Assembly: GCA_951406725.2 (NCBI GenBank) | Contig: OX597818.1 | Span: 135,842,001 to 135,906,000, forward strand | DNA length: 64,000 bases | Source: Octopus vulgaris | Taxonomy: Eukaryota | Direction: 5' to 3' | In this document: piece by piece, positions 29,887 to 36,000 of the stretch | How positions within the stretch are numbered: position 1 is the stretch's first letter | How the letters are laid out: each line of letters begins with the position of its first letter | Made by a program: the position numbers and the translations under genes | The notes under the pieces: generated by a model | Database searches by the model: none | What the model saw: the letters and a program-made list of their open reading frames with translations, nothing else | What the model was told of the DNA's origin: nothing

Positions 29887-30094
29887 TTACACAAACGTAG
29901 ACATGGCAGATGGTGCAGCAGTCTCCGTTGCTTCCTTCTTGTCCTGGGTGCCATACTGTCCAATGAAGGAGCCATCTTCATTGAATTTACTAGGATCAAC
30001 GTCTCCATAGTCTCCTAAGCTATCGGAATCACTTATTCCACTGGTTTTGTCTCCATTCACTAAGGCTCCAGGTTTACCAATTCCATTTTCATCA
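29887..30094 (-). CDS. Nrg: Neuroglian-like last coding exon (FIGQY ankyrin-binding motif, class I PDZ ligand)
   Basis: gtttcag|T GAT GAA...; [71 protein letters not shown]. Confidence 0.96.
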
Positions 30095-33000: not shown

Positions 33001-36000
33001 AAAAAAAAAACATAAACTAGAGACAACATATTTTACATTTGCTATATAATGTAAATGAACGTTATTGGTGGTGGTGGTGATGGCAGTGAAGTGATACTGA
33101 TAATGATGGTGATGATAGTGGTATTAGTAGTAGTGTCTATGCCAGCAGTGGTGACAATGATTGGTGGTGGAGCTGGTGGTAGTGATGATGGTGGTAGTGA
33201 TGATGGTGGTAGTGATGAATAACAACAACAACAACAGTTAACTTAATACTAAATTCCTGTTTTTTAAAAATGAACTAAAAAGTGTAGTATGGCTGAAAAT
33301 GGTGTGTCATGCATAGAATAAAGTAAGGTGACGTAAGGTCGCGATGGACTTACAAAAACTAAAGAGGAGAGAAAATGGAGAAGCAAGTGCTTAATATAGA
33401 TTTTACCTTTTTTTTCTGTAAAGCATTGAAGGAAAAGAAAGAAGGAACATGATGACAAAAGAAAACACTGAATGTCTGTTGATGTGAATACTCTGCCAGT
33501 CAAATAATAAATCACATCTTTTTTTAAGGATATAATTAACAAAGCAAATATTTAACCCAAAGGGAAGAAATACACATGTGAGGTTTGTAATTTATTTATT
33601 CTATGATAAATATTCGAATATTATTTACTGATTAACATTGTAGAGAATAAACACTGCAATTCTATATATTTTCTCAAATAAGCATAATACAAGAAATACA
33701 TATGGTAATATAAGATATAACATGATAAAGTATTAGGTAGATAAATGTTTCATTTTAACGACAGCAGCTCAAGATTTTAGTGTTTTTATTATAGAGCTGG
33801 GGGTTAAAGTTTTTCTTTAAGTAACAATAGTTTGCTACATTGATAAGAGTAAAGGCCTTTTCAGATTTGTGGGAGGGAAAGAAAAATACATTGTTTAACA
33901 ACATAGGCACCCCTAATATTCACCTTACAAAAATACATACCAGTAATATTGGCTTAAATAAAATAGATGCTTGTAATATTAGGTCTAATAAAATAGGTAC
34001 CTGTGATATTAGTCTTACATAAATATATATCTATAATAATGGCCTTAATAAAATAGATACCTGTAATATTAGTTTTAATAAAATAGGTAGCTGTAATATA
34101 GGCCTTAATAAAATAAGTCCCTGTTATAATGGTCTTAATAAAAGAGATACCAGTAATATTAGGGGCAGATTCAATCAGCTGTAATCCTCCCTTACAAAAT
34201 TGACATTGTACTTTGTACAAGAACAAAAATATTAAAATATCATTTTCTTGCTATTTGTGGATTGATGAGATTATTAAAGAAGAACTGTGTCACTGGAGAA
34301 TATTTATAAAAGTTATCAGAGAAGGTATCTAGTTTGTGACTTACTTTTTACTGTCATTGGGGTGGTCATCAGTACTGTACGGGTCATGGCCTCGTAGTCT
34401 TTCTTCTTCTTGCACTGAAAAGGAAAATACATTTTTAAATATGACAGACATATACGTCATTGTGTATGAATACATCATTTCAGACTATAATATTTTTAAA
34501 ACACCCATAAATATATGTTCTGGTTTAATCTCTCAGAACCAGAGCACAGTGATGATGATGATGATGATGATGCCTAAGATGATAATGACGGCAACACAGT
34601 ATGGTAAACTATTGTACAGATATTTTACTAATAACAAAAATTGCTTAACTAATTCTCTTTACGGTGGCTAAAACTATAACAATTCAGTTTACTTAGAAAC
34701 ACATGTCCATAATATTAACATTTCTATCAAGTAATTAAATCTTCCTCTTCACAACTCAAAATGATATCCTTAATGAATTACTAAATGTATGTTAGTCTAC
34801 GACATCATGGGTTGGATAGGTCTGTTTTATTGTTTTTAACCATCAATCTATTATTTGTCATTCTTCAATAACCTATAATCTCTCAAATAGTCACCCCTTG
34901 TCTTATTTACATTATCAATTTACATAGAGTTCACATTGATTAACTAACACAATGGTTATATAGAATAATGAATTATTATCCTTAATTACAAGTATTTATA
35001 AAACAAGAATCCGATGAAATATGGTTGATTTGTTTAATTTTATTTTATGATCATTTATAGATAACTTCTAACATCAAATCTGTTGTTGAACAAATTTCTC
35101 TCGTTATTTTTGCTAATATATCAATTTACATCTCACAAGACTAAGCATTGTTACCTGTTCATAATACTTTGTATCAAACAACACAAACATATCTTCATTC
35201 TCTTAACTTCATTTTGGAATAGCAGTAGTAGTAGTAGCAGTAGTAGTAGTAGTAGTATTCATCATTATTTAATGCCCACTTTCCATCCTGGAATGGGTTG
35301 GAATGTGTTATCTATTTTTTCTACTGCTTAAAATTTATAGAATTCTGAGTAAACTTCTAAATGAATTAAACATTTCAACCAAAATTAACAAAAGCTCAGA
35401 ATTGTTTTTCCCAATATATTGAAAATGACACTGAGATACTTAACCCTTTAGTGTTTAAACCGGCCATATCTGGCCCAGATATTCTACATGTTTTATATTC
35501 AAACTGGCCATATCTAGCCTCTCACACCTAATGTACATTGACACTCTAAAAATAAACAATCACATCAAAGCTGTAAGATAATGCATGATTAATTCAAAAC
35601 AATTTGAGTGAAAAAGTATTACATCTAACAGAGTAATCTGAACACTAAAGGGTTAAAGTATTCACGAAGTGCTTACTTCTTTAGAAAAAAAGAATAAACC
35701 AATAAAATATGACTTACCATCATATTTGGCTTCATGGTTTCTCTTGGCAATACACACAATGATCAGAATGAGGATGAGAAGAGCAATTGCCACCATCATG
35801 GCAATAAACCAGGTAGCAGAAGTTAGATCTTGAGTAGCTGTGCCTTAAAGTACACATGGACATAAAATTAGTGTTACATTTTGCATTTAAAAGCTATTTA
35901 GAATAGATAAAAGGTTGGTCACAAGTGAGACTCAGCTCACAAGTGAATCCCTGATGGAATGAAGAGGAGGAGGAGGAACATTGGAATATTTTTACATGTG

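Follow-up and report, generated by a model that had tools for sequence, protein, structure and literature searches.

In the last intron of the Octopus vulgaris neuroglian gene, a 9-nt microexon is followed at close range by a candidate 5-nt exon, TTTTT, whose inclusion would shift the reading frame. We tentatively read the block around these two units as the flank through which the 9-nt microexon is controlled, with a 5-nt competitor that is silent or seldom used, and we would attribute tail-less neuroglian mainly to read-through of a donor further upstream. The window analysed is a stretch of 64,000 nt from contig OX597818.1 (positions 135,842,001 to 135,906,000), and all coordinates below refer to it.

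The gene lies on the minus strand and encodes neuroglian, of the L1 family. The 68 residues of its last exon are 100% identical to the neuroglian of Octopus sinensis and O. bimaculoides, and isoform X1 of O. sinensis (P0033) could be mapped to 23 exons across the window and two adjoining stretches. X1 has the Ig, fn3 and Bravo_FIGEY domains (the last by Pfam, E 3.5e-12) that define the L1 family. The last intron, which holds the microexon block, measures 4.25 kb, and the shortest of the gene's 22 mapped introns measures 134 nt. The block occurs once in the genome. On the minus strand it reads ...ttaagcacttgcttctccattttctctcctctttag/TTTTT/gtaagt, as the first-pass annotation had described it, and the 48-nt spacer and the TGCATG that the annotation placed there were also found, the latter being the only TGCATG in the intron (Table 1).

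Table 1. Features of the 3' part of the neuroglian gene, in window coordinates
Feature	Position	Strand	Basis or remark
Neuroglian transmembrane exon	35718..35843	-	Exact peptide mapping, O. sinensis X1 (P0033)
Juxtamembrane exon, 70 nt, phase 2 end, ...PNDSK-AA	34345..34414	-	Donor read-through gives SKK*
First AATAAA, a possible poly(A) signal within the intron, for the SKK* form	33785..33790	-	Sequence
Second AATAAA, likewise a possible poly(A) signal, then U/GU-rich sequence	33595..33600	-	Sequence
Upstream side of the 9-nt exon: pyrimidine tract, UGC (33425-33423), acceptor; layout like that of eMIC exons	33416..33470	-	Sequence; 10.1101/2021.02.24.432780
9-nt microexon, N to KKKS, weak donor GTAAAA	33407..33415	-	9/29 cephalopod proteins
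48-nt spacer: TTAAG (33394-33390), UGC, 15-nt pure pyrimidine tract and AG	33359..33406	-	Sequence
Candidate 5-nt frameshifting microexon TTTTT	33354..33358	-	Sequence and scores; 0/29 proteins
Consensus donor GTAAGT; could also end a 62-nt exon from 33415 (SKKKKR*)	33348..33353	-	Sequence and score
Two CCTTAC-containing elements complementary to the GTAAGT donor	33323..33340	-	Sequence and predicted pairing
TGCATG, RBFOX-type; 40 nt past the 5-nt unit, 93 nt past the 9-nt exon	33308..33313	-	Sequence
Last exon, coding part: FIGQY 29967-29953, STFV* end; frameshifted TAG 30062-30060	29887..30094	-	Sequence, Pfam Bravo_FIGEY

Comparison of cephalopod proteins shows the 9-nt exon to be alternatively included. 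Five cephalopod clusters comprise 35 members, 34 of them listed; 29 span the junction and five are fragments. At the junction, 17 of the 29 skip the exon (SK-NDENG...), nine carry KKKS (SK-KKKS-DENG...), two end in SKK* and one has a KKKKV frameshift. The KKKS carriers are O. sinensis, O. bimaculoides, Logan members of the cuttlefish cluster and one further Logan cluster; the Logan-source proteins among the 29 (n=9) divide into six skip and three KKKS forms. A 9-nt exon adding KKKS had been proposed from the letters of the window alone, and these nine proteins bear it out. The peptides given at first pass were also right, as recomputed translations agree for the skip, +9 nt, +5 nt and read-through forms.

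The layout of the 9-nt exon, with UGC 10 nt upstream and a UCUC-rich tract, is of the eMIC type. Microexons regulated by eMIC/SRRM3-4 are reported to be 3-27 nt long, with UGC near the acceptor and a UCUC-rich tract (10.1101/2021.02.24.432780; 10.1101/2024.09.17.613571), a description that the 9-nt exon fits well, whereas in the 5-nt unit the tract abuts the AG, the UGC lies 27 nt off rather than 10, the donor is strong and the length is not a triplet one. UGC is reported not to be strictly required for eMIC-type microexons (10.1101/2024.09.17.613571), and it occurs within 30 nt in 4 of 33 genomic look-alikes of the 5-nt site. We propose that the 9-nt exon would be an eMIC/Srrm234 target by virtue of its UGC at 10 nt, and that the U/C-rich spacer and TGCATG would tune its inclusion. 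An SRRM_C profile had one match in the genome, in an RS-rich frame and with a weak score (32.6 bits against a cut-off of 27, E 3.3e-4), which is likely the octopus Srrm234 eMIC exon. A Fox-1_C profile matched neither the octopus genome nor any control genome.

In position, the 9-nt exon recalls a vertebrate one. RSLE of L1CAM and NrCAM is a short, neural, in-frame cytoplasmic microexon that also lies between the juxtamembrane segment and FIGQY, making the KKKS exon a functional look-alike. The likeness is one of position: RSLE differs in length and sequence, and it keeps the frame, which the 5-nt unit would not. A novel alternative exon of NrCAM, reportedly the subject of Dry et al. 2001 by its title, may be a comparable vertebrate form.

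The TGCATG element had been linked by the first-pass annotation to the 5-nt unit as an RBFOX site. The element is there, downstream of the unit, but it is common to the 9-nt exon and cannot be assigned to the 5-nt unit in preference to that exon. Downstream of alternative microexons, TGCATG is reported to be the sole enriched motif (PMC4317164), and therefore the 9-nt exon accounts for its presence.

Searches for products of the 5-nt unit came back empty. Neither NFLMK... nor NFCKS... (the 5-nt and read-through products), nor KKKKR*, occurs in any of the 29 junction-spanning cephalopod proteins, and 0 of 11 candidates among shorter proteins had the 5-nt or read-through product. A search for near-length proteins that was not tied to the last exon gave eight matches, none of them new in cephalopods; among 50% representatives the one match was the skip form, and ten further clusters were singletons. 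We take this silence as weak negative evidence because the proteins are not independent, represent few assemblies and species and may in part come from the window's own assembly. Frameshifting exons of 5 nt are commonly missed by aligners and annotation pipelines. Of 115 relatives in metagenome contigs, 80 loci were kept, the best at 73% identity and none cephalopod-like, and blastn found the block in 0 of the 80. Among 24 listed sequencing runs, from nine studies where the block was found, 20 held the block or part of it (at least half of its 31-mer words in 13), and none of the 24 was an RNA run holding it. Runs of two other organisms held shares of 0.60-0.72 of the block's words, a figure that has no flanking-intron baseline and is hence mute on constraint; lower shares, 0.20-0.36, in a further organism and two other rows were left out of account.

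Models of tail-less neuroglian do exist, and most point to another route. FIGQY is absent from 5 of the 83 proteins that have a transmembrane segment: O. vulgaris CAI9723577.1, O. sinensis X6 and X5, Saccostrea echinata X2 (P0059) and Gigantopelta aegis X3 (P0083). CAI9723577.1 and O. sinensis X6 (P0032, P0038) end in SKK*, which is what translation through the juxtamembrane donor gives in the window. The S. echinata and G. aegis models diverge at the equivalent junction, and their first divergent residue fits donor read-through; these oyster and gastropod forms, compared as protein alone, are consistent with that origin. Four of the five tail-less models would thus fit read-through of the upstream donor. 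An alternative source of SKK*, the +4 donor of the juxtamembrane exon, scored -0.3 bits, and read-through was preferred. Two AATAAA hexamers (33790 and 33600) lie between the juxtamembrane donor and both microexons and could end the SKK* transcript; the SKK* models may themselves be retained-intron artefacts. Three mollusc classes have tail-less models that part at the same junction, which is a lead to check.

The fifth model, O. sinensis X5, has an 8-nt insert and a KKKKV frameshift, and reads on in the frame that the 5-nt product would also have. The last intron contains no canonical 8-nt exon that would supply it. Inclusion of the 9-nt exon creates a run of 13 A in the mRNA (34349-34345 joined to 33415-33408), with four AAA lysine codons, and the insert is likely slippage on this run at the juxtamembrane/9-nt junction. 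Slippage or ribosome sliding at the 13-A run could also yield the same shifted tail as in X5. An in-frame 9-nt variant, TTTTTGTAA, was ruled out by a donor of -1.5 bits. The three-way splice choice proposed at first pass is supported in that skip, +KKKS and tail-less models all exist; its attribution of the tail-less form to the 5-nt exon is not supported, as the product was seen in 0 of the 29 proteins and the tail-less octopus models carry SKK* or the 8-nt insert.

In the mechanism that we favour, cleavage at an intronic poly(A) site would produce the form without FIGQY and STFV, much as in the Elav-controlled neuroglian of the fly. There, Elav-controlled poly(A) bypass sets the last exon of nrg, giving Nrg167 or Nrg180 (PMC8055025). 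The two systems share a gene family and a design in which RNA 3'-end processing would switch the cytoplasmic end, between a proximal intronic poly(A) site and a distal exon (PMC8055025). They differ in what is lost: both fly isoforms are reported to keep FIGQY and to differ at the PDZ end (PMC4384726), whereas the octopus branch precedes FIGQY, so every octopus short form loses the ankyrin site.

The donor of the 5-nt unit is predicted to be paired, a point that the first-pass annotation had not raised. Two CCTTAC elements follow GTAAGT (33340-33333 and 33330-33323), and the first pairs with GTAAGTC in a predicted bulged 7-bp stem of -4.5 kcal/mol. Mean pairing predicted for this donor is 0.97. 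Among 20 true donors, 2 score as high or higher, as does 1 of the 33 look-alikes; a CTTAC lies no more than 40 nt away in 0 of the 20 and in 1 of the 33. The hairpin may reflect masking of a harmful cryptic site, a regulated gate or a donor born by local inverted duplication. Under our preferred reading, the CCTTAC elements would mask this second donor, so that neither the 5-nt exon nor a 62-nt exon ending at the same donor would form often. Folding of the whole block gave a stability no better than that of shuffles (z -0.83). An antisense Rfam match to snoR29 (32.9 bits, below the gathering score of 50) was taken as chance on A-rich sequence. Just past TGCATG, at 33294-33250 on the minus strand, several more AG follow short pyrimidine runs with no strong donor behind them, and the CTTAC elements also match the branch-point consensus for these AGs.

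The chief alternative makes the 5-nt unit a non-triplet microexon under regulation, which for steric reasons cannot be included together with the 9-nt exon and whose frameshift drops FIGQY and STFV, a reading that we regard as doubtful but quite possible. The receptor would keep its juxtamembrane segment, the hairpin would serve as an on/off control and decay would be escaped. The unit has microexon size (3-27 nt) with AG and GT borders, and its product would end at TAG 30062-30060, 35 nt into the last exon. A new stop within the last exon is what non-triplet alternative C-termini have, and junction-dependent decay would therefore not apply. Non-triplet splicing is reported to give stable alternative C-termini (PMC13247117; PMC7392665), and NMD-resistant C-termini from non-triplet exons are documented as a class (PMC13247117). 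The shared traits are a frameshift at the penultimate position and a stop in the last exon, and the class includes a regulated non-triplet microexon, tnt-3. The known cases are from C. elegans and mammals and have read support, whereas the octopus unit is a candidate with a triplet microexon for a partner; moreover, mutually exclusive exons of C. elegans are reported to be 100% triplet (PMC13247117), which speaks against the switch.

Geometry favours exclusion, if both exons are used. At 48 nt, the spacer falls short of the 50-nt donor-to-branch-point limit reported for steric exclusion of exon pairs (PMC5740500) and of the gene's shortest mapped intron, so joint inclusion would be unlikely, as the first-pass annotation had argued. 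Mutually exclusive exons should both be used and never together, and here the 9-nt exon is found in 9 of the 29 proteins and the 5-nt exon in 0. Also unfavourable to the switch are the weak branch-point candidate in the spacer (TTAAG, judged from sequence), a UGC distant from the AG and the exonic TTT before the donor. In its favour, the genome has the SRRM_C-domain match, and the tail-less models in three mollusc classes suggest that such a product is tolerated. That the two exons form a mutually exclusive pair, with a hairpin-gated frameshift switch uncoupling the receptor from ankyrin and PDZ scaffolds, is again possible and again something we doubt. If it were true, the switch would be, with donor read-through, one of several mollusc routes at one intron to an L1 protein without FIGQY, and a pairing of triplet and non-triplet microexons would be unusual as a design.

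Further support for the switch comes from the splice sites. A weight matrix was trained on the gene's own 23 acceptors and 22 donors, a few of which may be mis-snapped by some bases. The acceptor of the 5-nt unit scored 8.0 bits and its donor 7.2 bits, mid-range for the mapped acceptors (4.9-16.0) and donors (-0.4 to 12.7), and both outscore those of the real 9-nt exon (6.8 and 5.5). Candidates of 3-27 nt that were equal or better numbered five, at four places, in 360 kb of background, and within the gene's 46 kb there were three unannotated ones on the sense strand and none on the antisense strand; the chance of such a unit in a given 100 nt is about 0.1-0.7%. A rule-based scan of the sense strand over 29,890-64,000 returned five microexon-like candidates, the 9-nt exon among them, and the 5-nt unit was the best of these in the 34 kb and the most pyrimidine-rich.

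Genome-wide, the exact pattern Y15-AG-N5-GTAAGT has at least 13 matches in 2.8 Gb, the octopus neuroglian site included (reversed control, 45). With N6 there were at least 10 (control 61) and with N7 at least 11 (control 33), all counts being lower bounds. A first pattern with 17 pyrimidines had given eight matches, the neuroglian site not among them, and was relaxed to 15. There is no triplet-length excess (13, 10 and 11 for 5, 6 and 7 nt), which indicates that such matches arise without coding use. Of the 34 sites of this kind, the neuroglian one alone has a TGCATG no more than 100 nt away (0 of the 33 others, against a background of 3.6% per 100 nt), and 1 of the 33 others has an upstream microexon-like element. 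These chance figures overstate the surprise, because the pattern was fitted to a site already known, and the flank of a real microexon tends to be rich in pyrimidines in any case. The site is uncommon, and is in part more than chance. Two of the look-alikes, L104 and L111, share AG-AATCA-GTAAGT and similar flanks and are probably repeat copies.

The same GTAAGT, at 33353, might instead be paired with the 9-nt exon's acceptor, giving a 62-nt exon and the end SKKKKR*; in cells that lack microexon factors it would then win over the weak GTAAAA. This is unlikely. The donor is the better of the two (7.2 against 5.5 bits) and the acceptor is known to work, but KKKKR* occurs in 0 of the 29 proteins, the donor is predicted to be paired and the 15-nt pyrimidine tract and AG would be left unexplained. 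Junction-dependent decay follows a 50-55-nt rule, and the stop of the 62-nt exon, ending 49 nt before the last junction, would sit at the edge of it.

It is distinctly improbable that an alternative terminal exon begins at the 33359 acceptor, with the hairpin suppressing the donor: a 17-codon open frame does follow the acceptor and the donor is predicted to be masked, but the product is in 0 of the 29 proteins and the first downstream AATAAA is about 1.2 kb away. Its FYA end would resemble the EFYA end of syndecan, a class II PDZ ligand.

Least probable is an assembly error, with six T in place of five and an in-frame N-F-F exon, which the first-pass annotation had raised as a caveat; long-read assemblies are prone to errors in homopolymers. 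Yet all 25 sampled 31-mers of 33245-33500 occur in each of four runs, which come from three studies and one of which may be the source of the window itself. About 2.8 of the 25 would be expected to cross the T-run, and random sampling would leave it uncrossed with a chance of 0.045. NFF is in 0 of the 29 proteins, and five T is likely right.

Control of the FIGQY-ankyrin link is known through tyrosine phosphorylation. A splice-made receptor without FIGQY would, if true, give the largest invertebrate brains a second, hard-wired way of uncoupling adhesion from the spectrin skeleton. FIGQY is reported to couple L1-family proteins to ankyrin (PMC2139872), with further support for its being the ankyrin site (PMC2196473), and in fly Nrg180 its deletion is reported to disrupt mushroom-body axons, whereas deletion of the PDZ end does not (PMC4384726). 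A literature search, at the level of titles and the starts of abstracts and with most subscription papers outside its reach, found no account of the 5-nt exon or of a mollusc neuroglian lacking FIGQY. The main text of a study that includes octopus (10.64898/2026.09.05.749416) does not name neuroglian, and its supplements may list these exons. Should the 5-nt unit be silent, what is left is an ordinary, already annotated neural-type microexon and the lead offered by the tail-less models.

Other parts of the gene also vary. A 24-nt alternative exon (AHPSIMFK; 41949-41926, minus strand) lies just before the transmembrane exon; it is present or absent among octopus proteins and has a counterpart in cuttlefish-cluster and Logan proteins. 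A tandem repeat of 30-nt period and 7.7 copies (33923-34163) lies between the juxtamembrane exon and the microexons. In Gigantopelta (P0079/P0082) and Owenia (P0021/P0073), the interval between the juxtamembrane segment and FIGQY is variably extended by in-frame inserts (4 and 10 residues), and this interval is, judging from these proteins, alternatively spliced in other lophotrochozoans too.
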